A stretch of 11,770 nucleotides of DNA. Source: a virus. Below, in pieces: positions 1 to 11,770 of this stretch. The notes beneath the pieces were generated by a model, which had not been told where the DNA came from, did no database searches, and worked only from the letters and a program-made list of their open reading frames with translations. The position numbers were made by a program, and so were the translations under genes. Each line of letters begins with the position of its first letter. Positions within the stretch are counted from its first letter, which is position 1. The DNA lies in UHGV virus genome UHGV-0394577; one strand, 5' to 3'.

Positions 1-73
1 CACTTCAGGAAGATTTAACAAATCACTCAAAAAACGCAAAGACAGAACAGCACCAAGATATAAAGCGCTGGAG

Positions 74-274
74 ATGACAGAGCACGCCTTAAAGGTGGCT
101 ATAAAAGTGATAGACATCACAGCGGGAGAAGGATACGCGAAAGCACATCCCGAACTGATAAGCGCATTCATGACCACAGCGGCGGCAAACTTTGCCACGC
201 TGACAGAGCGGGAGATTGCCGAAGCGGAACAGGTAACAACCATCAACGTTAAAACCGGAGAGGTGAAATCATGA
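74..274 (+). CDS. hypothetical protein, possibly 5'-truncated by the window edge
   Basis: ORF track 66 aa. The same frame is open back to position 2, and the GGAG directly abuts the ATG at 74 (poor spacing), so the true start may lie upstream of the window. Stop overlaps the ssb start (ATGA). Confidence 0.4.
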   Translation: MTEHALKVAIKVIDITAGEGYAKAHPELISAFMTTAAANFATLTEREIAEAEQVTTINVKTGEVKS

Positions 275-681
275 CAGCACAGATAGCCGCTTACGGGCGG
301 CTGGTGGACGACCCGCAGGTAAAACAGACCAGCAAGGGCACACCGATGACGCTGGCGCGTATGGCGGTATCGTTGCCATGCAGTCAGGCGCAGGACGGGC
401 AGGCAACGTTATGGCTGTCGGTCCTGGCATTTGGCAAACAGGCCGACCAACTGGCAGGACATGAGAAAGGCAACGTAATCAGCGTATCCGGCGTGATGCA
501 GGTCAGTCAGTGGACCGGACAGGACGGGGAGACGCGTCAGGGTTATCAGGTCATTGCCGACAGCGTAATCAGTGCGAAAACGGTGCGACCAGGCGGCAGC
601 AGACGCAAAACCACAGGCACACAGGGTAATCAGCCACCAGCGGGAGGCGATGACCCTTACGGTGATGATATTCCGTTCTGA
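271..681 (+). CDS. ssb: single-stranded DNA-binding protein (SSB) homolog
   Basis: 136 aa; OB-fold-like N-terminal region alignable by eye to E. coli SSB (LVDDPQV, W..V.AFGKQA, QWTGQDGETR), Gly/Pro-rich linker and the characteristic acidic C-terminal tail ending DDIPF; SD GGAGAGGTG upstream. Confidence 0.8.
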   Translation: MTAQIAAYGRLVDDPQVKQTSKGTPMTLARMAVSLPCSQAQDGQATLWLSVLAFGKQADQLAGHEKGNVISVSGVMQVSQWTGQDGETRQGYQVIADSVISAKTVRPGGSRRKTTGTQGNQPPAGGDDPYGDDIPF

Positions 682-691
682 GGGGGTGACG

Positions 692-964
692 ATGGTACAT
701 GACCGCATAGCGGAAGAACTCGAAGCGAAAGGATTTTACCGGAGGGCGGCGGCGCGATGGGGTGAAGTCATGATGCTGGTGGAGACAGACAAGGAACGGC
801 ATCACATCACGATGCGACGGCTGGAATGTTCCAGGAAGGCACAGAGGCCACCGGAGCCGCCTGATAATTTCGGAGACCTGAGAAATGCAGTCAATCGCAC
901 TTGTGCCGAAATGGGTATAGATGGTGCTGGTGATGAAATATGGCGCAATTACCAGGACAGCTAA
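692..964 (+). CDS. PerC-family transcriptional regulator-like protein
   Basis: 90 aa starting at ATG 692 (SD GAGGGGG at 681-687), internal to track ORF 572..964. N-terminal motif AEELEAKGFYRRAAARWGEVM resembles the PerC/Pch signature (LE.KG.WRRAA.RW..VM) as recalled from memory. Confidence 0.55.
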   Translation: MVHDRIAEELEAKGFYRRAAARWGEVMMLVETDKERHHITMRRLECSRKAQRPPEPPDNFGDLRNAVNRTCAEMGIDGAGDEIWRNYQDS

Positions 965-971
965 TCACACT

Positions 972-994
972 GCCGGAGAAATCCGGCTTTTTTT
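972..994 (+). terminator. rho-independent terminator (hairpin GCCGGAGAAATCCGGC + T7)
   Basis: Perfect 6-bp GC-rich stem with 4-nt loop followed by 7 T, 8 nt after the stop of the PerC-like gene. Confidence 0.6.
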
Positions 995-1089
995 GCGCCA
1001 GTTGAAACGGTATGGCGCATTACCGGCTTTTCGTCACGGTCCGGCATAGTTACTATCTGAAACAAACAGACACAACAGAGGAAAAAACA

Positions 1090-1314
1090 ATGCCGATGAT
1101 ATTTGATGAGATATTAAAACAGCGTGATAAATACCATGCTGACAACATGGAGACGATGAACATCACTGATTACCGCGCATTCCTGGAAACGGGCGCGCTA
1201 ATCGAAAAGGATCGGCATGGATTTGTCAGATGTGCGCTATCCGGTGAAATGCTGGCGGTAAATCCTGAACAGATAGATGCATTGATAGAATTTCTGAAAG
1301 GGATCAGAGACTGA
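1090..1314 (+). CDS. hypothetical protein (74 aa)
   Basis: ATG at 1090 preceded by AGAGGAAAAAACA; internal start of track ORF 1012..1314; followed by terminators. Confidence 0.5.
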   Translation: MPMIFDEILKQRDKYHADNMETMNITDYRAFLETGALIEKDRHGFVRCALSGEMLAVNPEQIDALIEFLKGIRD

Positions 1315-1334
1315 GCCAGCACACAGCACACATA

Positions 1335-1356
1335 GCCGGAGCAATCCGGCTTTTTT
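1335..1356 (+). terminator. rho-independent terminator (hairpin GCCGGAGCAATCCGGC + T6)
   Basis: Second copy of the hairpin seen at 972-987 with one loop substitution, followed by a T-run. Confidence 0.55.
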
Positions 1357-1362
1357 GTACCC

Positions 1363-1404
1363 AAAAAAAGCCCGATAAGGTCAGAGGGGGCTTATCGGGC
1401 TTTT
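1363..1404. terminator. possible bidirectional terminator (A7 - AGCCCGATAAG...CTTATCGGGCT - T4)
   Basis: 11-bp inverted repeat flanked by an A-run on one side and a T-run on the other. Confidence 0.45.
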
Positions 1405-1482
1405 GCATATGAGGTTTTTTTGGTGCGCTGACACACATGATCGGGATGATAATTTCATAATTTGCAACATAACTCAATATCA

Positions 1483-1510
1483 TTGCACAAAATGCAATCC
1501 TGATTATAAT
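1483..1510 (+). promoter_or_regulatory. candidate sigma70 promoter for the head-gene operon, overlapped by a palindromic operator
   Basis: TTGCAC (1483-1488), 16-bp spacer, TATAAT (1505-1510). Perfect inverted repeat ATTGCA-n5-TGCAAT (1482-1498) overlaps the -35/spacer. About 55 bp upstream of the ORF at 1567. Confidence 0.3.
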
Positions 1511-1566
1511 CATAACTGGATGAACATACAGTTATGATTTTTTAAGTCGAAGAGGAATTTCTTACT

Positions 1567-1773
1567 ATGGCTGAAGAGAAAAAAGGCGGTGTTTCGGTGT
1601 ACATAAGCCCCGAAATCGTGGAGGTGCTCAAGCAGCGCCACAAAAAAAACTATGAGGCTGGCGTTGCGGCTGGACTGGATCCGCTGATGACGCCGGAGCC
1701 GTCGATAGGTTCACTTGTGCGATCTTATTTACTTGCGGCGCTTGGGATGCACAAAAATTATGGGGGCGAATAA
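1567..1773 (+). CDS. hypothetical protein (68 aa) immediately upstream of the major capsid gene
   Basis: ATG with AGAGGA SD; stop TAA overlaps the capsid ATG (TAATG), suggesting translational coupling. Confidence 0.5.
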   Translation: MAEEKKGGVSVYISPEIVEVLKQRHKKNYEAGVAAGLDPLMTPEPSIGSLVRSYLLAALGMHKNYGGE

Positions 1774-2828
1774 TGGCAGTCAAAGCAATAGCACTTAACA
1801 CACACCAGCTTTTCGCGTACCTGAATCGCGAGGATATTGCGGAATTTAAATTTAGTCCGCTGTTTACCGCGCTGTTTTTCCCGAACGTGGCGACATTCAA
1901 CACGCAGGACATCATGTTAGATAACCTGGATATTGAAGAAGTCACTATGTCGGCGTTTTGTTCGCCTATGGTTGGCAGCCAGGTTCAGCGCGATAAAGGG
2001 TACGAAACCAGCATTATCCGCCCTGGCTACATGAAGCCAAAACACGAAATCGATCCATTAAAAACAATAATGCGCATGGCTGGAGAAGATCCGGCACAGC
2101 TTAACGATCCTACCTACCGCCGTATGCGCCTGATTACTGGCAACATGCGCCGCCAGATAAACGCCATTAAAGCGCGTGTTGAATGGCTGGCGGTGAATGC
2201 GGTAACGACCGGAAAAAACATCATTGAGGGCGAAGGCATAGAACGCTATGAAATCGACTGGAAGATACCGGAAAAAAACATCATAGAGCAGGCCAAAGGC
2301 CGTAAATGGTCCGAGCAGGATAAAGACATACACGACCCAATCTATGACATTGAGCTATACGCAGATCAGGCAGGTTGCCCCGCCAACGTCATGATTATGG
2401 GCGTTGATGTATGGCGCATGTTACGCAGCTTTAAAAAATTCCGTGAGCTGTACGATCTTTCCCGTGGTTCAGAATCCGCCGCAGAGCTGGCATGTAAAAA
2501 CCTGGGCGAAGTGGTGAGCTTTAAAGGCTATCTTGGTGATCTGGCCCTTATCGTCTATTCCGGCAAATACACTGACAGCGACGGCACAGAAAAATATTTC
2601 CTTGAGCCTGATTTGCTGGTCCTGGGCAACACCAACAATAAAGGGCTGGTGGCCTATGGTGCGATTATGGAACAGGAAGCGGTAAGAACGGGCGCAACGC
2701 AAAACATGTTTTACCCGAAAAACTGGATTGAAGACGGCGATCCGGCGATTGAGTACGTGCAGACACACAGCGCACCGCAGCCGGTACCGGCAGATATTCG
2801 CAAATTTGTTACCGTCAAAATTGGTTAA
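1773..2828 (+). CDS. major capsid protein, phage lambda gpE-like
   Basis: 351 aa; colinear similarity to lambda E recalled from memory (FKFSPLFTALFF, PGYMKPKHEI, DPTYRRMRL, WRMLRSFK, RGSESAAELACKNLGEVVSFKGYLGDLALIVYSGKY, LVLGNTNNKGL, YPKNWIEDGDPA, C-terminal FVTVKIG). Confidence 0.92.
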   Translation: MAVKAIALNTHQLFAYLNREDIAEFKFSPLFTALFFPNVATFNTQDIMLDNLDIEEVTMSAFCSPMVGSQVQRDKGYETSIIRPGYMKPKHEIDPLKTIMRMAGEDPAQLNDPTYRRMRLITGNMRRQINAIKARVEWLAVNAVTTGKNIIEGEGIERYEIDWKIPEKNIIEQAKGRKWSEQDKDIHDPIYDIELYADQAGCPANVMIMGVDVWRMLRSFKKFRELYDLSRGSESAAELACKNLGEVVSFKGYLGDLALIVYSGKYTDSDGTEKYFLEPDLLVLGNTNNKGLVAYGAIMEQEAVRTGATQNMFYPKNWIEDGDPAIEYVQTHSAPQPVPADIRKFVTVKIG

Positions 2829-2839
2829 CGGGGGATTCT

Positions 2840-3175
2840 ATGAACACTCCATACATTGAGTTATTTGCAGGCAGTCAGCAGGTATCAACGACGCTGGTAC
2901 ATTTTGCCGCTGATGCTGGCGTTATTCAGGAATTTACCCCGCTGATGCTGGTGGACAATGGCGAGTTTAAGCCGTGGGATGGTCAGGAATCTGGCAAGGC
3001 TGTTTATCTGACCTCGTACCCCGTGGACACGTCGACGCAGAAATCAGCACAGTGCTACAAGACGGGGATATTCAATATTGCCGCCGTTAACTGGCCTGAG
3101 AGCGTCGACACCGATGCGAAAAAATGCGCCGCCTTTGCGGGTTCTGGCGTATCCGTTCAGCCGCTGGCCCGATAA
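2840..3175 (+). CDS. head decoration protein, phage lambda gpD-like
   Basis: 111 aa (lambda D is about 110 aa); shared motifs TPLML, WDG, YKTGIF, WPE, AFAGSG; SD GGGGGAT. Gene order here is E then D, the reverse of lambda. Confidence 0.8.
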   Translation: MNTPYIELFAGSQQVSTTLVHFAADAGVIQEFTPLMLVDNGEFKPWDGQESGKAVYLTSYPVDTSTQKSAQCYKTGIFNIAAVNWPESVDTDAKKCAAFAGSGVSVQPLAR

Positions 3176-3187
3176 GCAGGGGGAACG

Positions 3188-3601
3188 ATGGCAACGAATG
3201 AAAGCATCATGACGCTACCGCTGGCGAGTAAATTTAAAGCCGAAGCGCGTGCAATGGCTGACAGAGGTTTATCAACCTATGAGGCCGTATATCAACTAAA
3301 CAAACTGGAAGAGCAGGACAAGCCGCGCGCTGATGCGATTATGGCGCTTCATGAGCATAAAGACTATCAGCCGCTGTTGCGTGCAATGGCAAACGTGCCA
3401 TGTATTAGCGTCGATAATGCTCGTGAAATCCTGAACATGACCATAGACCAGGAGCGCCCAAAGGTTGCGCCGGAGCTTACCGCAGCCTTTGAAAACTTTA
3501 TGGACATGCACAGCCCGCAAGCCGTATCAGCAGGCATGGCATACGATGGAAGAAACCCTGGCGATGACGGCGACATCGATCGCATACTGAAAACCATCTG
3601 A
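3188..3601 (+). CDS. hypothetical protein (137 aa), in the position occupied by FI in lambda
   Basis: Good SD (AGGGGGAA); acidic C-terminus; followed directly by a terminator. No recognisable sequence similarity, positional inference only. Confidence 0.5.
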   Translation: MATNESIMTLPLASKFKAEARAMADRGLSTYEAVYQLNKLEEQDKPRADAIMALHEHKDYQPLLRAMANVPCISVDNAREILNMTIDQERPKVAPELTAAFENFMDMHSPQAVSAGMAYDGRNPGDDGDIDRILKTI

Positions 3602-3606
3602 GACAG

Positions 3607-3631
3607 GCCGGAGAAATCCGGCTTTTTTTTT
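3607..3631 (+). terminator. rho-independent terminator (hairpin GCCGGAGAAATCCGGC + T9)
   Basis: Third copy of the same hairpin, identical to the copy at 972-987; the T-run runs into the cosQ-like sequence. Confidence 0.6.
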
Positions 3632-3698
3632 ACGGGTCCTTTCCGGCATATGGACCCGTTACGGGGCGGCGACCTCGCGCGTTTTCGCTATTTATGAG
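3631..3698 (+). other. lambda-type cos site (cos1): cosQ-like TACGGGTCCTTTCCGG, cosN GGGCGGCGACCT at 3664-3675, start of cosB
   Basis: TTTACGGGTCCTTTCCGG...GTTACGGGGCGGCGACCTCGCG.GTTTTCGCTATTTATGA matches the joined right and left ends of phage lambda DNA as recalled from memory; lies upstream of the Nu1-like gene as in lambda. Confidence 0.75.
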
Positions 3699-3808
3699 CC
3701 TTTTCGGGTTGGTGGTGGTGGTTTTGTTGTTCGCTCTATCTCCATGAATAAAAAGGGAAAGATAACACCAACACACCAACCTGAAGCATTAATTAAGTGG
3801 GGGTATTG

Positions 3809-4351
3809 ATGAAATCGCACCTGATGAACAAAAAAACTATGGCGCAAAGCTGCCGCGTAAGCGCCACTGCGTTCGATAAGTGGGGAGTAACTCCCGTTGA
3901 GCGTAAAGGCCGTGAGGCGTTTTATGATGTTGCTAGCGTGATAGACAATAGGGTTAACAATGCAATTAACCAGCTTACAAACGACAAAGGCGAGATTGAT
4001 GATGATGAACTTTTACGCGTAAGAATCAGATTAATGACGGCCCAGGCGGAAGCGCAGGAACTTAAAAACGAGCGCGAACGCGGCGAGGTGATTGATACAG
4101 AGTTTTGCATGTACGCGCTTTCAAAACTGGCAAGTCAGATTTCTTCAATCATGGACAGCCTCCCGCTTACTATGCAAAGGAACTTCCCACAGATGCCCCC
4201 CGCTATGCTGCATGGGCTTAAGAGGGAAGTAGTTAAAGCCTGTAATGCCAGTGCCAGAGTTGCCGACAACCTCCCACAGATACTGGCTGATTACTTGAAA
4301 GAAACAACCGGAAACGTACCGGAAAAGTTGCTACAGAAGAAAGGCGAGTAA
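3809..4351 (+). CDS. terminase small subunit, lambda Nu1-like
   Basis: Track ORF 3797..4351 begins at GTG; ATG 3809 follows a GGGGG SD. The middle and C-terminal regions resemble lambda Nu1 (RLMTAQAEAQELKNERERGEVIDTEFCMYALSKLASQISSIMDSLPLTMQRNFPQ; LKREVVKACNASA), while the N-terminal putative DNA-binding region is divergent. Confidence 0.85.
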   Translation: MKSHLMNKKTMAQSCRVSATAFDKWGVTPVERKGREAFYDVASVIDNRVNNAINQLTNDKGEIDDDELLRVRIRLMTAQAEAQELKNERERGEVIDTEFCMYALSKLASQISSIMDSLPLTMQRNFPQMPPAMLHGLKREVVKACNASARVADNLPQILADYLKETTGNVPEKLLQKKGE

Positions 4352-4380
4352 CAGACGCGCAATTATTGAACAAAAATGAG

Positions 4381-4441
4381 AAAGGATCTGATAATGGCAT
4401 TTTCTGGCTAAAATGCCTCGTGTCAGATCCTTTCTTTTTTT
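4381..4441 (+). terminator. compound hairpin + T-run: likely terS terminator and, on the opposite strand, the R-element hairpin of cos2 cosB
   Basis: AAAGGATCTGA...TCAGATCCTTT inverted repeat with nested GGCATTTT/AAATGCC stem, followed by T7; geometry mirrors the lambda cosB inverted R elements. Confidence 0.5.
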
Positions 4442-4472
4442 AATATTTTCATTGTTAAACAGTCTGTTACAG

Positions 4473-4571
4473 AGAAGAAGAACGGATCTGACTTTTGCCG
4501 GAAAATTTTCATAAACAGATAAAATCCGCGAGGTCGCCGCCCCGTAACGGGCCATAATTCCAGGAAGGACC
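4473..4571 (-). other. second lambda-type cos site in inverted orientation (cos2): cosQ-like, cosN (4531-4542, minus strand), R3-like CCGTTCTTCTTC
   Basis: Reverse complement reads CGGGTCCTTCC...CCGTTACGGGGCGGCGACCTCGCGGATTTT...TTTATGAAAATTTTCCGG...CCGTTCTTCTTC, matching lambda cos further into cosB than cos1 does. Confidence 0.7.
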
Positions 4572-4606
4572 CGACGACACCAGACTATCAGAACGATGGG
4601 GGCACA

Positions 4607-4888
4607 ATGACAGAAGCCGAACTACTGGGATTAATACGCCGCGTCGCCGGAATCAGCCAGCAGGCTGACGAACAGACCGCGCAGCCGGACAGCGTGACCG
4701 CCGAAAATTACGCGCGTGTGGTTGCTGAGGTGATGCGCCGTGATGGTATCCAGCTTAATGGCGTTGATATGCGCAACATACGGATACGCGTTCTTGAAAT
4801 GCTGGCCTACCGTCGCCGCGTGCAGACGTACAGGGAAAAAGCAAAAATTACGTACCACTGGAAGAAGCCGGAACGACTGCGTACGTAA
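4607..4888 (+). CDS. hypothetical protein (93 aa)
   Basis: ATG with GATGGGGG SD; basic C-terminus; stop overlaps the palindrome CGTACGTAATACGTACG. Confidence 0.5.
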   Translation: MTEAELLGLIRRVAGISQQADEQTAQPDSVTAENYARVVAEVMRRDGIQLNGVDMRNIRIRVLEMLAYRRRVQTYREKAKITYHWKKPERLRT

Positions 4889-5108
4889 TACGTACGGATA
4901 TCGAGATAAAGACGGTTTTTTTACCCCACTGGGGAAAAGGTACGCACCTGAATCATCATTATCGTGATCAAGGGTATGTAAAGCCCACCAGCCTGATCAA
5001 CAGTTAACCGGAAAAAAAGCCAGGTATGGGGGGGTAGTGGTTAGCCACGAACAACGAACAAGCTGGACACCGCGCCCACTCTCACGCAGAGAAAAAATTA
5101 CCGTTTCG

Positions 5109-5236: not shown

Positions 5237-5365
5237 TTAACCTGGCAAAAATTCCGGTAGGTGGTGATCCCCATATCGGGGAACATCCACCAGCTTCGTT
5301 TTTATAAATTAAACACCTGGGAAAATCAGACTCTGAATTGTGCATTTTTTCAGCAAATCATTTTA

Positions 5366-5385
5366 GTTATACGTTTGGTTATACG
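5366..5385. repeat. two direct GTTATACG repeats (12-bp spacing)
   Basis: GTTATACG at 5366-5373 and 5378-5385. Confidence 0.45.
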
Positions 5386-5468
5386 GTTTAAAAGTTGAAT
5401 CAGGAACATTCTTTTAAATCATTCAGTTACATGATCAATTAAACTACTCTCGTGCCGACCAAATTGCC

Positions 5469-5494
5469 CACCGGATATCACCGGAAAGCACCGA
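5469..5494. repeat. three direct CACCGGA repeats at 10-bp phasing
   Basis: CACCGGATATCACCGGAAAGCACCGA; the same dimer recurs at 5553-5569 and 7383-7399. Confidence 0.45.
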
Positions 5495-5509
5495 ATAAGA
5501 CAGGGATAA

Positions 5510-5552: not shown

Positions 5553-5569
5553 CACCGGATATCACCGGA
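5553..5569. repeat. CACCGGATATCACCGGA direct repeat (second copy)
   Basis: Identical 17-mer to 5469-5485. Confidence 0.45.
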
Positions 5570-5596
5570 TTTATAAGCTATCAGCCGGATTTTTTA

Positions 5597-5644
5597 GTTA
5601 TACGCTTAGTTATACGGGCTGGCGTATAACTAAAGCCGTATAAC
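5597..5644. promoter_or_regulatory. symmetric array of GTTATACG motifs (two direct then two inverted) just upstream of int
   Basis: GTTATACG at 5597 and 5609, CGTATAAC at 5623 and 5637, forming an imperfect palindrome of about 50 bp centred near 5620, 35-85 bp upstream of the int ATG. Candidate integrase arm-type or regulator binding sites. Confidence 0.45.
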
Positions 5645-5679
5645 TAAAACCCTGTTTTTTCGTGTGGAATCATAGACAT

Positions 5680-6921
5680 ATGGCGAGAAAAACAACCCAA
5701 TTAACCACAGTGCAGATCAAAGCAGCCAGGCCAGCGGAAAAGGAGTACACCCTACAGGACGGCGGGGGGCTTTTTCTCCTGGTCAAACCGTCCGGATCAA
5801 AACTCTGGAGATTTTCCTACTACCGACCATCGGACAAAAAAAGAATATTGCTGAGTTTTGGATCGCTTGAAGATGTTTCCCTGGCTGATGCCAGAAAACG
5901 CCGTAGCGAGTACAGGACGTTAATCAGTGCCGGAACTGACCCGCAGGACCACGAGAGGCAAAAAAGAGAGACAGAGGCCCGAAGACAAGGGAACACGTTC
6001 GAAAATGTGGCGGCGGCATGGTACCAGGTGAAAATCAGCCAGAATCTGGCCCCCAACACGATTAAAGACATCTGGAGATCGCTGGAAAAATATGTATTCC
6101 CGTTCATCGGTAACACGCCAATAGACACCCTGACCGCTCGCAGGTTTGTTGAGGTGCTTACCCCCATCAAGGAACGTGGCAACCTGGAAACACTCAAACG
6201 GGTTTTACAGCGAGTCAATGAAGTAATGGATTACGCCGCCAACAGTGGGCTGATCGATACCAATCCGGCTATGAATGTGCGTAAGGCGTTCCCCTCCCCT
6301 GTAAAAAAACATATGCCAACAATCCGCCCCGAGCAGTTGCCGGAGCTTATGCAGGCTTTATCAGTATCGGCAACAGAACGGCAGACCAGATTACTGATCG
6401 AATGGCAGTTACTGACCGTAACCCGTCCCGCCGAAGCGTCATCAACTCGGTGGGATGAAATCGACATGGACGCGAAGCGATGGACGATACCCGCCGGACG
6501 CATGAAGATGAGGCGTGATCACGTTATCCCGCTTTGTAGTCAGGCTATGGCGGTACTGGAGGCTATGAAACCAATCAGCCATCACCGCGATTACGTTTTC
6601 CCGAGCCTGAAAGACCCACGGCAGCCTATGAACAGCCAGACCGCAAACGCAGCATTGCGGCGGATGGGGTTTGGCGGGGTTCTGGTTTCTCACGGTATGC
6701 GCGCCATATTCAGCACCGCAGCGAACGAAGAAGGATTTGAGCCGGACGTAATAGAGGCCGCACTAGCCCACGTGGACACCAACGAAGTGAGACGGGCATA
6801 CAACCGGAGCAACTACATAGAAAAACGCATCGTGCTTATGCGCTGGTGGGGCGAATTTGTCGAGGCGGCGGCAACGGGCGTGACCCTTGCCAGTGGTAAA
6901 AGGGGTATTCGGGCCGTGTAG
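5680..6921 (+). CDS. int: tyrosine recombinase / integrase, P4-family
   Basis: Track ORF 5662..6921 begins at GTG; ATG at 5680 gives the N-terminus MARKTTQLTTVQIKAARPAEKEYTLQDGGGLFLLVKPSGSKLWRFSYY typical of P4-like integrases; C-terminal catalytic region with R...HVIPL...HGMR..F...A and a Y in RRAYNRSNY. Confidence 0.92.
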   Translation: MARKTTQLTTVQIKAARPAEKEYTLQDGGGLFLLVKPSGSKLWRFSYYRPSDKKRILLSFGSLEDVSLADARKRRSEYRTLISAGTDPQDHERQKRETEARRQGNTFENVAAAWYQVKISQNLAPNTIKDIWRSLEKYVFPFIGNTPIDTLTARRFVEVLTPIKERGNLETLKRVLQRVNEVMDYAANSGLIDTNPAMNVRKAFPSPVKKHMPTIRPEQLPELMQALSVSATERQTRLLIEWQLLTVTRPAEASSTRWDEIDMDAKRWTIPAGRMKMRRDHVIPLCSQAMAVLEAMKPISHHRDYVFPSLKDPRQPMNSQTANAALRRMGFGGVLVSHGMRAIFSTAANEEGFEPDVIEAALAHVDTNEVRRAYNRSNYIEKRIVLMRWWGEFVEAAATGVTLASGKRGIRAV

Positions 6922-7019: not shown

Positions 7020-7250
7020 ATGCGGACAAATACAAACAGCAATTGCGACGGGCTGCAACTGGCCCTGATCGTTAAACATGAATTTTGGTCAACCTACGAT
7101 CCGGAGGACAGAACGACAGCCCCATCAAAAAGGCAGGTAGTAGATTTTCTGGTATCCCGTGGGACTTCCAGAAATTTGGCTGAGAGTATCGACAGGGTTG
7201 TAAGGCCCGTATCAATGAAGACCGGAGGCAGGCCAAAAAAATGGCGGTAA
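7020..7250 (+). CDS. hypothetical protein (76 aa)
   Basis: ORF followed by a strong terminator; weak RBS. An ATG at 7006 with a better SD is in another frame and stops after 20 codons, so the true start is uncertain. Confidence 0.35.
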   Translation: MRTNTNSNCDGLQLALIVKHEFWSTYDPEDRTTAPSKRQVVDFLVSRGTSRNLAESIDRVVRPVSMKTGGRPKKWR

Positions 7251-7262
7251 CAATCCTGAAAG

Positions 7263-7285
7263 CGGCAGAAATGCCGCTTTTTTTA
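7263..7285 (+). terminator. rho-independent terminator (GCGGCA-GAAA-TGCCGC + T7)
   Basis: Perfect 6-bp stem, GAAA loop and T-run 12 nt after the stop at 7250. Confidence 0.6.
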
Positions 7286-7314
7286 TAATTCCCTTTCAAA
7301 TCATCAACATAAAA

Positions 7315-7382: not shown

Positions 7383-7399
7383 CACCGGAATACACCGGA
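7383..7399. repeat. CACCGGAATACACCGGA direct repeat (third copy of the CACCGGA dimer)
   Basis: Lies 19 bp upstream of the alpA start codon. Confidence 0.45.
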
Positions 7400-7417
7400 T
7401 TCACAAGGTAAATCACG

Positions 7418-7624
7418 ATGGAAGCAATCAAAAAAGTCATCTTTCGCCAGGAAGTAAAAAAACTTATCCACATCAAGGCAGACAGCACGCTGCAAAGCAT
7501 GATCAACGCCGGAGAATTCCCGCAGGGTTTTCGCGTTGGTTTACGCCGTCGAGGATGGTATGAGGATGACGTAATCGCCTGGATGAAAGAACGCGAACAG
7601 GAAGCACGCGGAACGGCTGCTTAA
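7418..7624 (+). CDS. alpA: AlpA/Vis-family phage regulatory protein (excisionase-like HTH)
   Basis: 68 aa; STLQSMINAGEFPQGFRVGLRRRGWYEDDVIAWMKER fits the AlpA-family pattern (FP, G.R..GW.E.EV..W); sits downstream of int as in P4-like and PICI elements. Confidence 0.75.
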   Translation: MEAIKKVIFRQEVKKLIHIKADSTLQSMINAGEFPQGFRVGLRRRGWYEDDVIAWMKEREQEARGTAA

Positions 7625-8326: not shown

Positions 8327-8524
8327 ATGGTTGCCGTAAATCATATAACACACCTTGTACACACACAAACGGCCTTTGTGTGGCGTTTTCTGGCCCTGAG
8401 TGCCGGAGAATCTCAAATCATCCACGTAACCGCCTGGACGGAACGCGAAGCGCGTAGCCGTTGCCCGTCAGGTTGTGTTGCTGTATTTGCCGCTCGTATT
8501 CGTCAGGGGTCACATCATGCGTAA
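8327..8524 (+). CDS. Ash/Icd-like small protein (P4-type), short paralog
   Basis: 65 aa from ATG 8327 (SD TAGGAG), internal to track ORF 8228..8524. TAFVWRFLALS...VTAWTEREARSRCP...VFAARIRQG is paralogous to the C-terminus of the next ORF and resembles Ash/Icd-like proteins as recalled from memory. Confidence 0.5.
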   Translation: MVAVNHITHLVHTQTAFVWRFLALSAGESQIIHVTAWTEREARSRCPSGCVAVFAARIRQGSHHA

Positions 8525-8984
8525 AAACCGCTTGCAAAAAATTATAACGGGGCTGTATGCTTCCCCCGTCGCCCACATGGCGACCGGGTTTGACAGCCTG
8601 AATACTGTAGCGGACAGCCGCTTACATTCCGATATGCGGTTTTTTTGTGTCCGTAAACCTACCCATACCCGCATTATGGCGGGGCGTAACGGGGGAGCCT
8701 TTGCGCTCGCTGGTTCCTACAGTACCAGTCTGTCAACCCTGTTACGTCTCGCCACCATGTTTGACAGCGTAGTAGCGAGACTCCTTAAAATTACTGTAGG
8801 AGCCTTTCACATGGCTGTATCCGCACGCCCTTACTTTGTCTGGCGCTTTATGCAGTGCCACCACAGCAGCATTGATGTATTCACCGTTACCGCAGCCACT
8901 GAACGCGAAGCACGCGCCCAGCTGCCGCACGCACATCTGATTTTTGTCGCCCGTATTCGTCAGGGGAAAACCTATGCACAATAA
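8517..8984 (+). CDS. Ash-family-like protein, long paralog
   Basis: 155 aa from ATG 8517 (SD AGGGGT); start overlaps the previous stop (ATGCGTAA); C-terminus YFVWRFMQC...VTAATEREARAQLP...IFVARIRQG is homologous to the upstream ORF. Confidence 0.5.
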   Translation: MRKNRLQKIITGLYASPVAHMATGFDSLNTVADSRLHSDMRFFCVRKPTHTRIMAGRNGGAFALAGSYSTSLSTLLRLATMFDSVVARLLKITVGAFHMAVSARPYFVWRFMQCHHSSIDVFTVTAATEREARAQLPHAHLIFVARIRQGKTYAQ

Positions 8985-9426: not shown

Positions 9427-9726
9427 ATGAAACTTAAATATCCTGGCTTAACTGCCAGCGGCAAAACTCGCACTAAATTCATGTGCGGGGATATTTACCG
9501 CGATAAGTACGGCGGCACGGTAATGATTAAGAGCGTGGAGGAACGGCGCGTAACTTACCGTCGTGAAGGCTACCAATATGATTGCGTGATGCCTGTTTAT
9601 CAGTTCGAACGTGATTTTTCTCTTGTGCAGGCCGTACCGCGTAACGTGCCCACCAGCAGGGAGAAAGCACGCGCCAATATTCAGGAAATAAGAAAGATGT
9701 TGAACGTATTCAGGGGTAAAAAATGA
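9427..9726 (+). CDS. hypothetical protein (99 aa)
   Basis: ATG 9427 with GGAG 10 nt upstream; stop overlaps the primase start (ATGA). Confidence 0.5.
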   Translation: MKLKYPGLTASGKTRTKFMCGDIYRDKYGGTVMIKSVEERRVTYRREGYQYDCVMPVYQFERDFSLVQAVPRNVPTSREKARANIQEIRKMLNVFRGKK

Positions 9727-11477
9727 AACTTGCACCGAACGTAAAACAGCAGTCACGCGGCATAAAACACAAAGGAACAGAAGTCATTATTTTTGCGGGT
9801 AGTGATGCCTGGTCACACGCTAAACAATGGCAGGAACATGACGCGCGTATGGCCGGAGATAATGAGCCTCCTGTGTGGCTTGGGGATCAGCAGTTATCCG
9901 AACTGGATAAGCTGCAAATTGTGCCGGAAGGCCGAAAATCAGTACGCATATTCAGGGCCGGACATCTTGAACCTGTAATGATAAAGGCGATTGGTCAGAA
10001 GCTGGCGGCGGCAGGTGTACAGGATGCAAATTTTTACCCTGAGGGAATGCACGTTCAGGAGGTGGAGAACTGGCGCGAATATCTGGCCCGTGAGCGCCAG
10101 AATCTTTCTGAAGGTCTGTTCGTTGAGCTTCCGGTAAAGCAAAAGGCGCAACTTTCGCAGATGGCGGACAGTGAACGCGCTCAGCTGCTTTCCGATCGCT
10201 TTGATGGCGTTTGCGTACATCCTGAAAGTGAAATCGTTCACGTATGGCGCGGCGGGGTATGGTGTCCGGTCAGCACAATGGAACTTAGCCGCGAAATGGT
10301 GGCGATCTATTCAGAGCACAGGGCCACTTTCAGCAAGCGCGTAATCAATAACGCCGTTGAAGCGTTAAAAGTTATTGCCGAACCAATGGGCGAGCCGTCC
10401 GGCGATTTGTTGCCGTTCGCCAATGGTGCGCTTGACCTGAAAACGGGGGAATTTTCCCCGCACACGCCGGAGAACTGGATCACCACGCACAACGGTATTG
10501 AGTACACGCCACCAGCACCAGGGGAGAACATCCGCGATAACGCGCCAAATTTTCATAAATGGCTTGAGCACGCAGCCGGAAAAGACCCGCGCAAGATGAT
10601 GCGTATATGTGCCGCGCTGTACATGATTATGGCGAACCGGTACGACTGGCAGATGTTTATTGAGGCCACCGGAGACGGCGGAAGCGGTAAAAGTACATTC
10701 ACGCATATAGCCAGCCTTCTGGCAGGGAAACAGAACACGGTAAGCGCTGAAATGACCTCACTTGATGATGCTGGTGGACGTGCGCAGGTTGTCGGGAGTC
10801 GTCTTATCGTCCTGGCTGACCAGCCGAAATATACAGGCGAAGGAACGGGCATCAAGAAAATCACGGGCGGCGACCCCGTGGAAATTAACCCGAAATATGA
10901 AAAGCGTTTCACGGCGGTAATCAGGGCGGTGGTGCTGACGACCAACAACAACCCGATGATATTCACCGAACGGGCCGGAGGCGTGGCACGTCGTCGGGTT
11001 ATTTTTCGCTTTGACAATATCGTTAGCGAGGCAGAAAAGGACAAGGATTTGCCGGAGAAGGTCGCGGCTGAAATCCCTGTGATTATCCGCCGATTACTGG
11101 CGAACTTTGCCGACCCTGAAAAGGCCCGGGCTTTACTCCTGGAACAGCGCGACGGTGATGAAGCACTGGCAATAAAGCAACAGACGGATCCGGTTATTGA
11201 GTTTTGCCAGTTCCTGAATTTTCTGGAGGAAGCGCGCGGCCTGATGATGGGTGGCGGTGGCGATTCAGTGAAGTACACGACCAGGAACAGCCTTTACCGC
11301 GTCTATCTGGCGTTTATGGCGTACGCAGGCAGGAGCAAACCGCTAAACGTAAATGACTTTGGCAAGGCTATGAAGCCCGCTGCAAAAGTTTACGGACATG
11401 AATATATTACGCGGAAAGTTAAGGGAGTAACGCAGACTAACGCAATAACAACAGACGATTGTGACGCGTTTTTATAA
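9723..11477 (+). CDS. P4-alpha-like primase/helicase replication protein (SF3 helicase domain)
   Basis: 584 aa; Walker A GDGGSGKST, Walker B-like LIVLAD, later VVLTTNN motif; architecture typical of P4-family/PICI primase-helicase; iteron origin immediately downstream. Confidence 0.88.
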   Translation: MKLAPNVKQQSRGIKHKGTEVIIFAGSDAWSHAKQWQEHDARMAGDNEPPVWLGDQQLSELDKLQIVPEGRKSVRIFRAGHLEPVMIKAIGQKLAAAGVQDANFYPEGMHVQEVENWREYLARERQNLSEGLFVELPVKQKAQLSQMADSERAQLLSDRFDGVCVHPESEIVHVWRGGVWCPVSTMELSREMVAIYSEHRATFSKRVINNAVEALKVIAEPMGEPSGDLLPFANGALDLKTGEFSPHTPENWITTHNGIEYTPPAPGENIRDNAPNFHKWLEHAAGKDPRKMMRICAALYMIMANRYDWQMFIEATGDGGSGKSTFTHIASLLAGKQNTVSAEMTSLDDAGGRAQVVGSRLIVLADQPKYTGEGTGIKKITGGDPVEINPKYEKRFTAVIRAVVLTTNNNPMIFTERAGGVARRRVIFRFDNIVSEAEKDKDLPEKVAAEIPVIIRRLLANFADPEKARALLLEQRDGDEALAIKQQTDPVIEFCQFLNFLEEARGLMMGGGGDSVKYTTRNSLYRVYLAFMAYAGRSKPLNVNDFGKAMKPAAKVYGHEYITRKVKGVTQTNAITTDDCDAFL

Positions 11478-11491
11478 TTTTTTGCAATGGC

Positions 11492-11718
11492 TGTCTACCC
11501 TGTCTACCTGAGTAAAGGAAAATACATTTAATTCAGTATATTAAGTTAGGTAGATAGCCTTTTTTCCCTTGTCTACCTGCTGTCTACCCTCTCTACCTGA
11601 TTTTACCTGAACCAGAAAGGGAGGTAGATACGGGTAGATAGTGAATAAAAGCACTCTACCCCGCTGAAAGCCGCGCCATTACTGGAATGGGGGCCAGCAA
11701 GGTAGATAAGGTAGACAA
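11492..11718. repeat. replication origin iterons (TGTCTACC / GGTAGATA, about 11 copies in both orientations)
   Basis: Direct copies at 11492, 11501, 11571, 11581 and 11590 (degenerate TCTCTACC); inverted copies at 11549, 11623, 11633, 11701 and 11711; 9-10 bp phasing within clusters; similar to the P4 ori/crr type I iteron TGTTCACC as recalled from memory. Confidence 0.7.
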
Positions 11719-11770
11719 GGGGAGGCACAACTCAAAACTTTTTAAACGAGGGGGTAAAAATAAATATGCA

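Follow-up and report, generated by a model that had tools for sequence, protein, structure and literature searches.

The question raised by the present locus is why the same terminator-like hairpin is found three times within 2.7 kb. In the initial annotation, this repetition was regarded as unusual, and the hairpin was suggested to be an element recognized by an antiterminator or RNA-binding protein, a duplicated cassette boundary, or a recombination hotspot. Based on an analysis of the window (the whole stretch of DNA, 11,770 bp) and of related islands, we consider it probable that the three hairpins are ordinary Rho-independent terminators, which are reused as cassette boundaries and form the joints of module exchange.

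Three hairpins in a phage-inducible chromosomal island

The window is a complete, circular phage-inducible chromosomal island (PICI) of the EcCICFT073 type. It carries int, an alpA-like gene, a primase gene with an iteron ori, ssb, perC, and lambda E/D-like capsid and decoration genes, as well as a TerS-like (Rpp-type) gene with a cos site on either side, and its integration is tRNA-linked. As is typical of PICIs, the island has a pri-rep module with an ori, cos site(s), a specific att site, and a size within approximately 10-15 kb, and no lysis or tail genes were detected in it. Its layout is the same as that of Gram-negative PICIs of the EcCICFT073 / EcCIEDL933 type (PMC6092414, PMC6739421).

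Regarding the hairpins, a search of the entire window located the exact 16-mer GCCGGAGAAATCCGGC at positions 972-987 and 3607-3622, and GCCGGAGCAATCCGGC, which differs from it by one mismatch, at 1335-1350, all on the + strand. T-runs are present 3' of the stems at 988-994 (7 T), 1351-1356 (6 T), and 3623-3631 (9 T). The resulting elements, referred to as T1 (972-994), T2 (1335-1356), and T3 (3607-3631), have the stem arms GCCGGA and TCCGGC, which are flanked by A and T in T2 and by AG and TT in T3, and a GAAA (T1 and T3) or GCAA (T2) loop, both of which are GNRA tetraloops. The stems comprise 6-8 bp with five G-C pairs, and the predicted RNA folding energies of T1, T2, and T3 are -11.6, -13.8, and -14.4 kcal/mol, respectively, with T1, the stem of which has 6 bp, being the weakest. 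All three are co-oriented with the genes upstream and begin 5-20 nt 3' of stop codons, T1 7 nt past that of perC (962-964), T2 20 nt past that of a 74-aa gene (1312-1314), and T3 5 nt past that of a 137-aa gene (3599-3601). The positions given in the initial annotation, with identical hairpins at 972-994 and 3607-3631 and a variant at 1335-1356, were exact. The chance expectation for matches to the 16-mer in the window is 0.02, and four or more matches were found in none of 200 dinucleotide shuffles. A fourth copy at 7508-7523 was dismissed as a chance match; it has two mismatches, lies inside the alpA-like ORF, and shows neither a T-run nor a fold (z = 0.08).

T1 and T2 have a 28-nt repeat in common with 89% identity, CACAnnGCCGGAGnAATCCGGCTTTTTT, which includes an upstream CACA(C/T)A, and the flanks of T1, T2, and T3 are unrelated past approximately 30 nt. 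No Rfam family spans the hairpins; the only match nearby, ncr1175 (26.5 bits versus a threshold of 60 bits), represents noise from tandem terminators. Another terminator, AAAGCGGCA-GAAA-TGCCGCTTT with a T-run, is located on the + strand at 7258-7287 after the ORF at 7020-7250 (71% identity in the repeat comparison); it has the same GAAA loop on another stem, which indicates that the island also employs non-identical terminators.

T1, T2, and T3 were all reported by a terminator scan of the window. Because each element is placed after a stop codon and combines a GC-rich stem with a GNRA tetraloop and a U-tract, T1-T3 are very probably canonical intrinsic (Rho-independent) terminators, as was initially assumed, and transcripts would be expected to end at these sites. 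The polarity is strict: TTTT directly follows 3' on the gene strand at 253 of the 256 sites in the family and at none on the opposite strand. Among 152 PICI-like sites, the stop codon and the hairpin are 5-25 nt apart (mode 6), and the T-run consists of 4-9 residues (mode 6). The GC stem, the stable tetraloop, the 3' U-tract, and the co-orientation after stop codons are all shared with known intrinsic terminators that have GNRA tetraloops. However, that class is defined by structure and its copies are normally unrelated, whereas one sequence is present three times in 2.7 kb here and recurs across a satellite family.

T1 marks the end of an accessory cassette consisting of a perC-family gene (692-964, + strand; 90 aa; Pfam PerC, E = 5e-42). 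T1 and T2 bracket a second cassette (995-1334, + strand), which is composed of a spacer and the 74-aa gene (1090-1314, phrog_1957). Its GC content of 0.456 (0.44 for the 74-aa gene) differs modestly from those of ssb (0.59) and perC (0.535). A consensus scan, which is a weak test, predicted sigma-70-like sites neither in 995-1089 nor upstream of perC. Since the stem of T1 has 6 bp and no promoter is predicted between T1 and the 74-aa gene, T1 may be weak or only attenuating; it would close perC, probably as a leaky stop ahead of the 74-aa gene.

T2 is followed by a bidirectional terminator, biT (1363-1404; A7-GCCCGATAAG...CTTATCGGGC-T4), which at -24.2 kcal/mol is stronger than T2. In the adjoining AT-rich region (1405-1566, + strand; GC 0.33), a sigma-70-like match at 1454-1483 is followed by palindromes at 1492-1539; this appears to be a promoter/operator-like region of the capsid operon. 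This operon (1567-3601, + strand) consists of a 68-aa gene and the genes for a lambda E-like major capsid protein (1773-2828), a gpD-like decoration protein (2840-3175), and the 137-aa phrog_1999 protein (3188-3601). Directly 3' of T3 is cos1 (3633-3708, + strand) with the cosQ-like element CGGGTCCTTTCCGG and then the lambda-like cosN element GGGCGGCGACCT (3664-3675). T2 and the strong biT would together close the early/accessory unit and insulate the capsid-operon promoter, while T3 would close the capsid operon before the cosQ/cosN of cos1, so that transcription would neither cross the packaging site nor reach the rpp/terS-like gene beyond it. The cos1 and cos2 sites of EcCICFT073 have been described (PMC6739421). 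The initial description of the hairpins as punctuation of the late region is appropriate for T3, which ends the late (capsid) operon, but not for T1 and T2; the replication/early region ends in accessory genes, and T1 and T2 close these.

Conservation and distribution of the hairpin

In the satellite family, the exact 16-mer follows the 137-aa gene (the T3 site) in 77 of 77 relatives, and none of the 16 hairpin columns at T3 is variable versus 47% of the surrounding columns; the family samples are phylogenetically related, and such counts are descriptive and not probabilities. Across the family, GAAA, GCAA, GTAA, GGAA, GAAG, and GAAAA loops were found, together with stem changes to G.U pairs, and 11 of 71 related islands have a different hairpin, GCCGGGATTTTTCCCGGC, after the same SSB linker. 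Clean double compensatory substitutions were not found in the stems, which hardly vary at the low divergence of the family. Considering the free variation of the loop base among orthologous sites, the constraint appears to act on structure rather than on sequence.

The nearly invariant stem sequence, together with the lack of double compensatory substitutions, is also consistent with the binding of the hairpin, as RNA or DNA, by a specific factor of the PICI or its helper, such as an AlpA-type system, an antiterminator, or a protein that binds or processes RNA. The three stops would then be conditional and co-regulated. The genes on both sides of the stops must be expressed after induction, the hairpin bears a superficial likeness to boxB-like GNRA hairpins, and AlpA has been described as an 'activator' in PICIs (PMC6092414) and as a processive antiterminator in Pseudomonas (PMC7969949, PMC9371919). 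However, the loop varies in base and length (GAAAA and GAAG) at orthologous sites, the other hairpin stands in the same place in those 11 islands, and downstream of T2 there is a separate promoter-like region for the capsid operon. The alpA-like gene of the island encodes a 68-aa regulator with weak sequence likeness to AlpA, which is below the Pfam threshold for Phage_AlpA; its match to a solved AlpA-family protein had an E value of 0.055, and the structures that it matched did not include Pseudomonas AlpA. The antiterminators Q, N, and AlpA are loaded promoter-proximally, upstream of terminators, and act on any terminator, and known processive antiterminators need no shared terminator sequence.

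A short GC stem and a GNRA-type loop in a phage-related transcript are also features of the lambda nut boxB. However, the loop of boxB is a pentaloop, with boxA close by and no U-tract, whereas the present hairpin is followed by a U-tract and has no boxA adjacent to it. Matches to boxA were at the chance level (7 versus 4.9 expected), and none adjoined any copy of the hairpin; the absence of boxA and the presence of the U-tract eliminate the nut/boxB reading. With variable loops, alternative hairpins, and no adjacent boxA, the recognition element proposed in the initial annotation found no support, and we regard binding by a dedicated factor as quite improbable.

The initial annotation recognized that its observation would lose its meaning if the hairpin were a REP-like motif or a common terminator distributed throughout the host genome. 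This was examined in 5,426 complete E. coli genomes, 905 of which contain the hairpin, with a median of one place per genome and never more than 5, and all of the matches inspected were located within PICIs. A host-wide REP/BIME-like element or a common E. coli terminator that is present three times in the window by happenstance has its palindromic form alone in its favor, and against this distribution and the chance expectation of 0.02 its probability is negligible; the finding survives. Among cultured phages, including lambdoid phages, none has the full element, and the matches were partial or isolated 16-mers, such as a relative with two mismatches in P1. The sharing of the hairpin with helper phages was ruled out by this search.

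The bare 16-mer, with 15 specified bases, has chance matches in all phyla in the genome collection, 15 of 120 among the matches listed being terminator-like, and it also occurs after unrelated genes in low-GC (0.34-0.38) phage contigs. Some convergence in the origin of the 16-mer is possible because the same sequence arises independently as a terminator in unrelated taxa. These occurrences in unrelated bacteria and contigs, as well as the presence of all four GNAA loops, would be in line with convergent selection, in which a near-optimal minimal terminator evolved separately at each site and the copies became identical without a history of recombination or duplication. For the copies of the satellite family, we consider this to be unlikely. 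The likeness between T1 and T2 extends to the upstream CACA(C/T)A over 28 nt at 89% identity, the other terminators of the island (7258-7281 and 1366-1404) have different stems, and within E. coli the element is restricted to one satellite family. Furthermore, the hairpin has been duplicated along with neighboring cosQ/cosN-like sequences, and its core is unchanged while the left and right flanks recombine freely.

Gene cassettes and mosaic joints

Among related islands, perC and the spacer with the 74-aa gene are present or absent between ssb and biT. Three architectures were found, ssb-H-biT, ssb-perC-H-biT, and ssb-perC-H-o74-H-biT (H, hairpin; o74, the 74-aa gene), and the number of hairpins in the slot from ssb to the capsid operon equals the number of accessory cassettes. 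The spacer and 74-aa cassette is missing from islands that read perC-hairpin-biT. Some islands instead carry, after ssb-H or perC-H, a cos-like and degenerate copy of the T3-cos1 block, in which the hairpin was duplicated jointly with the adjoining cosQ/cosN-like sequence. On its left side, the capsid-operon block begins with biT (1363-1404), an edge that is conserved and always preceded by a hairpin copy.

Homology to other islands switches at the same points. For many E. coli islands, the alignment ends at window positions 992-997 (T1); at T2, alignments end at 1355 and start at 1335 and 1364. In addition, 120 of 577 internal HSP endpoints (21%) fall within 10 nt of a hairpin, which represents 3% of the sequence. 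Around the hairpin, the contexts fall into 32 classes on the left and 43 on the right; PerC(A) and SSB allele 2 are each joined to seven different right partners, o74 and PerC-B were each found with both R1 and R3, and at least eight upstream genes are paired with more than 10 downstream blocks across the hairpin. Unrelated late modules are also found on the right, among them a distant E/D-like pair, an HK97 capsid accompanied by a protease, and a ClpP-capsid fusion. T3 is rarely a breakpoint; it is within a conserved o137-T3-cosQ-cosN block, and breaks occur near 3700. The spacer and 74-aa cassette was found only after PerC(A) (13/13), with no second context. The comparison of islands, which had been proposed as a check, supports both the duplicated cassette boundary and the recombination hotspot, with homology starting and stopping at T1 and T2, a hairpin count equal to the cassette count, and a reshuffling of left and right partners.

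This layout of one gene and one hairpin, with reshuffling exactly at the hairpin, is reminiscent of a dedicated recombination site, at which a site- or structure-specific system inserts and excises cassettes. Integron attC sites (59-be) similarly place a palindrome at the 3' end of each cassette in a series. However, attC sites are imperfect palindromes of 57-141 nt and have R and L boxes, extrahelical bases, and the IntI integrase, none of which is found in the island, whereas the present hairpin is a perfect 16-nt stem-loop with a T-run. The sole recombinase of the island is a P4-type tyrosine integrase with Arm-DNA-bind_3 and Phage_integrase domains, which acts at a tRNA-linked att site. 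The strict co-orientation with genes and the obligatory U-tract are properties of terminators, and the single context of the spacer and 74-aa cassette also argues against insertion and excision; we consider a dedicated site to be highly improbable.

Reused terminators provide the account favored here. In the EcCICFT073-type PICI family, a single terminator design (a GCCGGA/UCCGGC stem of 6-8 bp, a GNRA loop, and a U-tract) would serve as the standard 3' end of genes and operons, and accessory genes would move as cassettes of a gene and its hairpin. Since the hairpin and T-run of 23-28 nt are the sole sequence common to otherwise unrelated neighbors, recombinants may be joined, or selected to be joined, at this point, plausibly aided by short-homology recombination during co-replication with helper phages. 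The identity of the copies probably reflects descent or recombination rather than a need for the exact sequence at each site. Selection on viable recombinants would by itself place breakpoints at gene ends, so that a mechanistic hotspot is not required. The hairpin may act as the crossover substrate itself, which we put at slightly below an even chance, or may only mark the place at which viable recombinants are selected.

A stronger proposal is that the hairpin is retained for a purpose, either as a 'universal joint' of the PICI pan-genome, in which 23-28 nt of portable homology allow cassettes and capsid/packaging modules to be swapped via helper-phage or PICI recombination, or as a conditional stop that is opened at all three sites by an AlpA-type processive antiterminator on induction. 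We regard this as doubtful.

Implications for the evolution of satellites

Morons and conserved boundary or linker sequences at mosaic joints of lambdoid phages were reportedly described by Juhala, Hendrix and colleagues in 2000 and by Clark et al. in 2001. The present cassettes resemble morons in that perC and the 74-aa gene vary in their presence between conserved neighbors and each has a terminator after it. Its own terminator and differing GC content also place the 74-aa cassette close to morons, with no promoter detected by the consensus scan, a weak test. The hairpin resembles boundary sequences in being a short conserved sequence exactly where homology between relatives switches. In contrast to the lambdoid cases, the joint is the terminator hairpin itself, with the same 16-mer at several joints, and the elements concerned are PICI satellites and not phages, the hairpin being absent from cultured lambdoid phages.

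Neither terminators nor this hairpin are mentioned in three reports on PICIs (PMC6092414, PMC6739421, PMC11773190), and the hairpin as a module joint is an addition to their descriptions of these islands, not a contradiction. No new mechanism or kind of element is revealed by the present results, which bear on how PICIs evolve. The hairpin represents a sequence landmark for operon ends and mosaic joints in a widespread satellite family of E. coli, and will be of use in the annotation of PICIs, in which it delimits accessory cassettes including perC-type virulence regulators, as well as in the design of synthetic PICIs. It also bears on whether short conserved terminators guide the modular exchange of satellites, as has been proposed for the boundary sequences of lambdoid phages.

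Genome completeness and gene order

Allowing for circular permutation, the window was 100% identical to a metagenomic contig (ENA ERZ807465, NODE_100_length_11825; coverage 101; L401 among the compared loci) and, since 11,825 nt minus a 55-nt overlap leaves 11,770 nt, it represents a complete, circularly assembled phage-inducible chromosomal island (PICI), not a chromosome fragment. It is a Gram-negative PICI of the EcCICFT073/EcCIEDL933 type described previously (PMC6092414, PMC6739421). The same element is found integrated beside tRNA genes in the chromosomes of E. coli, with the integrase gene first and the gene for a 93-aa protein last. The genes encode a phrog_1231 protein (74-274), SSB (271-681), a PerC-family protein (692-964), a 74-aa phrog_1957 protein (1090-1314), a 68-aa protein (1567-1773), a lambda E-like capsid protein (1773-2828), a gpD-like decoration protein (2840-3175), a 137-aa phrog_1999 protein (3188-3601), a Nu1/TerS-like protein (3797-4351), the 93-aa protein (4607-4888), a P4-type integrase (5662-6921), a small AlpA-like HTH protein (7418-7624), and a D5-type primase (9723-11477), directly after which iterons (about 11480-11730; GTCTACC/GGTAGATA) mark the presumed replication origin.

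Rfam identified a C4 antisense RNA (8672-8759, 71.7 bits) together with its a1/b1 target (8555-8604), as well as an isrK-like match; this module (8555-8759), upstream of Icd-like genes, is an RNA immunity system of the P1/P4 type, and a 169-aa ORF (8475-8984) overlapping it is probably not a real gene. The motif CACCGGATATCACCGGA occurs four times (5469-5495, 5553-5569, 7383-7399), close to att/int and immediately 5' of the alpA-like gene, and TTAGTTATACG is repeated at 5361-5386 and 5592-5617; these repeats are likely bound by an AlpA/excisionase-like regulator or by the arm domain of the integrase.

Three hairpins and the genes they close

A pattern search of the window located two exact copies of GCCGGAGAAATCCGGC (972-987 and 3607-3622) and one copy of GCCGGAGCAATCCGGC (1335-1350), each on the + strand and directly followed by a T-run, which confirmed the coordinates in the initial annotation of the hairpins T1 (972-994, 7 Ts), T2 (1335-1356, 6 Ts), and T3 (3607-3631, 9 Ts). 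Only 0.02 matches were expected by chance, and none of 200 shuffles contained as many. A fourth match (7508-7523) was attributed to chance, having two mismatches, a position within a coding region, no T-run, and no fold. The predicted RNAs of T1, T2, and T3 fold with -11.6, -13.8, and -14.4 kcal/mol and 6, 7, and 8 stem pairs, respectively, and their GAAA and GCAA loops are both GNRA tetraloops; the three show all the sequence properties of intrinsic terminators, and Rfam gave no known RNA family at their positions. The flanks are unrelated beyond about 30 nt, and T1 and T2 have 28 nt in common, including an upstream CACA.

The surrounding genes and the hairpins all lie on the + strand; T1 begins 7 nt past the stop codon of perC, T2 20 nt past that of the 74-aa gene, and T3 5 nt past that of the 137-aa gene. 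Therefore, the earlier description of the hairpins as punctuating the late region applies to T3, which closes the late (capsid) operon, but not to T1 and T2, which close accessory genes ending the early/replication unit. Directly after T2 lies a stronger, bidirectional terminator (1363-1404, -24.2 kcal/mol), followed by an AT-rich, promoter-like region with palindromes (GC 0.33) and the capsid operon. The overlapping palindromes in this region (ATGCAATCCTGATTATAATCATAACTGGATGAACATACAGTTATGATT, 1492-1539) look like operators for some late-operon regulator. The T-run of T3 abuts CGGGTCCTTTCCGG, which is cosQ-like, and then GGGCGGCGACCT (3664-3675), a lambda-like cosN.

Since no promoter was predicted before the 74-aa gene, T1 would attenuate transcription ahead of it. 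T2 and the bidirectional terminator may insulate the capsid promoter, and T3 would stop capsid-operon transcription from crossing the adjacent cos site (cos1, 3633-3708) into the rpp/terS-like gene.

Constraint on the hairpins within the family

In a sample anchored on the 137-aa protein, and hence unbiased as regards the hairpin, the exact 16-mer was present at T3 in all 77 loci with downstream sequence, around which the linker, T-run length, and first cosQ bases varied; among 55 unique sequences, 47% of the columns within 150 nt of T3 were variable, as against none of the 16 columns of the hairpin. The interval from ssb to the bidirectional terminator always included the hairpin, one per cassette, in four architectures: ssb-hairpin; ssb-hairpin and then roughly 182 nt of degenerate cos; ssb-perC-hairpin; and, as in the window, ssb-perC-hairpin-spacer-74-aa gene-hairpin. 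With the phrog_1231 protein as the anchor, a choice tied neither to the hairpin nor to the late module, the canonical hairpin was found downstream in 60 of 71 loci, and in the remaining 11 its place was taken by another hairpin terminator, among them GCCGGGATTTTTCCCGGC behind an identical SSB linker. Across the family, loops were GAAA, GCAA, GTAA, GGAA, GAAG, or GAAAA, stem changes were rare and mostly to G.U pairs, and TTTT was present on the gene strand at 253 of 256 sites and on the other strand at none. Taken together, these features indicate that it is the structure and polarity of the terminator that are constrained, and not any exact sequence needed for recognition. The specific antiterminator or RNA-binding target initially considered is not supported, given the variable loops, the alternative hairpins at the same site, and the lack of an adjacent boxA; moreover, known processive antiterminators, such as Pseudomonas AlpA, load upstream (PMC7969949, PMC9371919), and the AlpA-like protein of the window is only marginally so. 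The size and architecture of the hairpin and the type of integrase rule out an attC-like recombination site.

Module joints, cos sites, and probable descent

When window 560-1600 was aligned with other E. coli islands, the alignments stopped in the T1 T-run (992-997) or where T2 ends (1355), or else started at 1335 or 1364. Of 577 internal homology endpoints in window 1-5000, counted over all the loci fetched, 120 lay within 10 nt of a hairpin, in 3% of the sequence, a count that is descriptive since the compared samples are related. The 176 non-redundant hairpin occurrences fell into 32 left and 43 right context classes, with seven different right partners each for PerC allele A and SSB allele 2, and a four-gamete pattern was complete (left 74-aa gene or PerC-B, right R1 or R3). 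Late modules to the right also differed wholly (an HK97-type capsid with a prohead protease, a 637-aa ClpP-capsid fusion, a distant lambda E/D-like pair); in contigs L003, L012, L035, and L089, the early-module end (ssb, perC, or the 74-aa gene, plus hairpin) was joined to unrelated morphogenesis modules, which indicates that early and late PICI modules assort independently. The suggested cassette boundary or recombination hotspot is supported at T1 and T2, which coincide with module junctions; T3 differs in lying inside a conserved 137-aa gene-T3-cos block, with the breakpoints near 3700. In the close relative GCA_002544195.1 (L400, 7305-7526), the capsid protein is identical, perC is internally deleted (73 aa), and the 74-aa cassette is absent, reflecting fast accessory turnover between near-identical islands.

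A 76-nt inverted repeat (79%; 3633-3708 and 4498-4573) places cosQ/cosN-like sequences on both sides of the Nu1/TerS-like gene and matches the cos pair (cos1, cos2) of EcCICFT073, the purpose of which was left open (PMC6739421). In relatives, unrelated inserts of about 278-663 nt take the place of the segment between these arms, and the pair thus brackets a swappable cassette. Some islands have a third, degenerate cosQ/cosN-like copy (ACGGGTCCTCCTGG...ACGGGGCGGGAGGCGCGG; L001, 13219-13300; L400, about 7410-7480) directly after the hairpin following ssb or perC, a paralogue of the T3-cos1 block, which implies that hairpin-bounded blocks move.

A sensitive BLAST search with the 31-nt T3 element found it in 905 of 5,426 complete E. 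coli genomes (median 1, maximum 5 places each); all matches inspected individually were within PICIs of this family, the labels "trigger factor" and "head-tail connector" being annotation names of PICI genes, and a search of cultured phages, lambdoid helpers included, did not find the element. Within E. coli, the element is accordingly specific to this satellite family and not a common host or REP-like motif. The bare 16-mer occurs by chance in all phyla, was terminator-like in 15 of the 120 matches listed, and ends genes in unrelated low-GC phage contigs (L007 type), which marks it as a core that makes a good terminator in general and can evolve more than once; there and in scattered bacteria of several phyla (L129-L236), the same minimal hairpin has been reinvented. 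An independent origin of the PICI copies is possible in principle, but fits poorly with the upstream bases shared by T1 and T2, the restriction to one satellite family, and the duplicated hairpin-cos block. The identical copies probably reflect descent as "gene + hairpin" cassettes, with recombination at, or selected at, a shared 23-28 nt patch; selection for intact genes would give the same picture as a physical crossover site in the patch.

Lambdoid phage mosaicism is pictured in terms of morons and boundary sequences, which, with intrinsic terminators bearing GNRA loops, are the closest known counterparts. Terminators are not mentioned in the PICI papers PMC6092414, PMC6739421, and PMC11773190. 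Although it will not surprise specialists, this family-specific "standard" terminator doubling as a module joint adds a new case to a known class, and the hairpin provides a landmark for annotation and for tests of module exchange among satellites.
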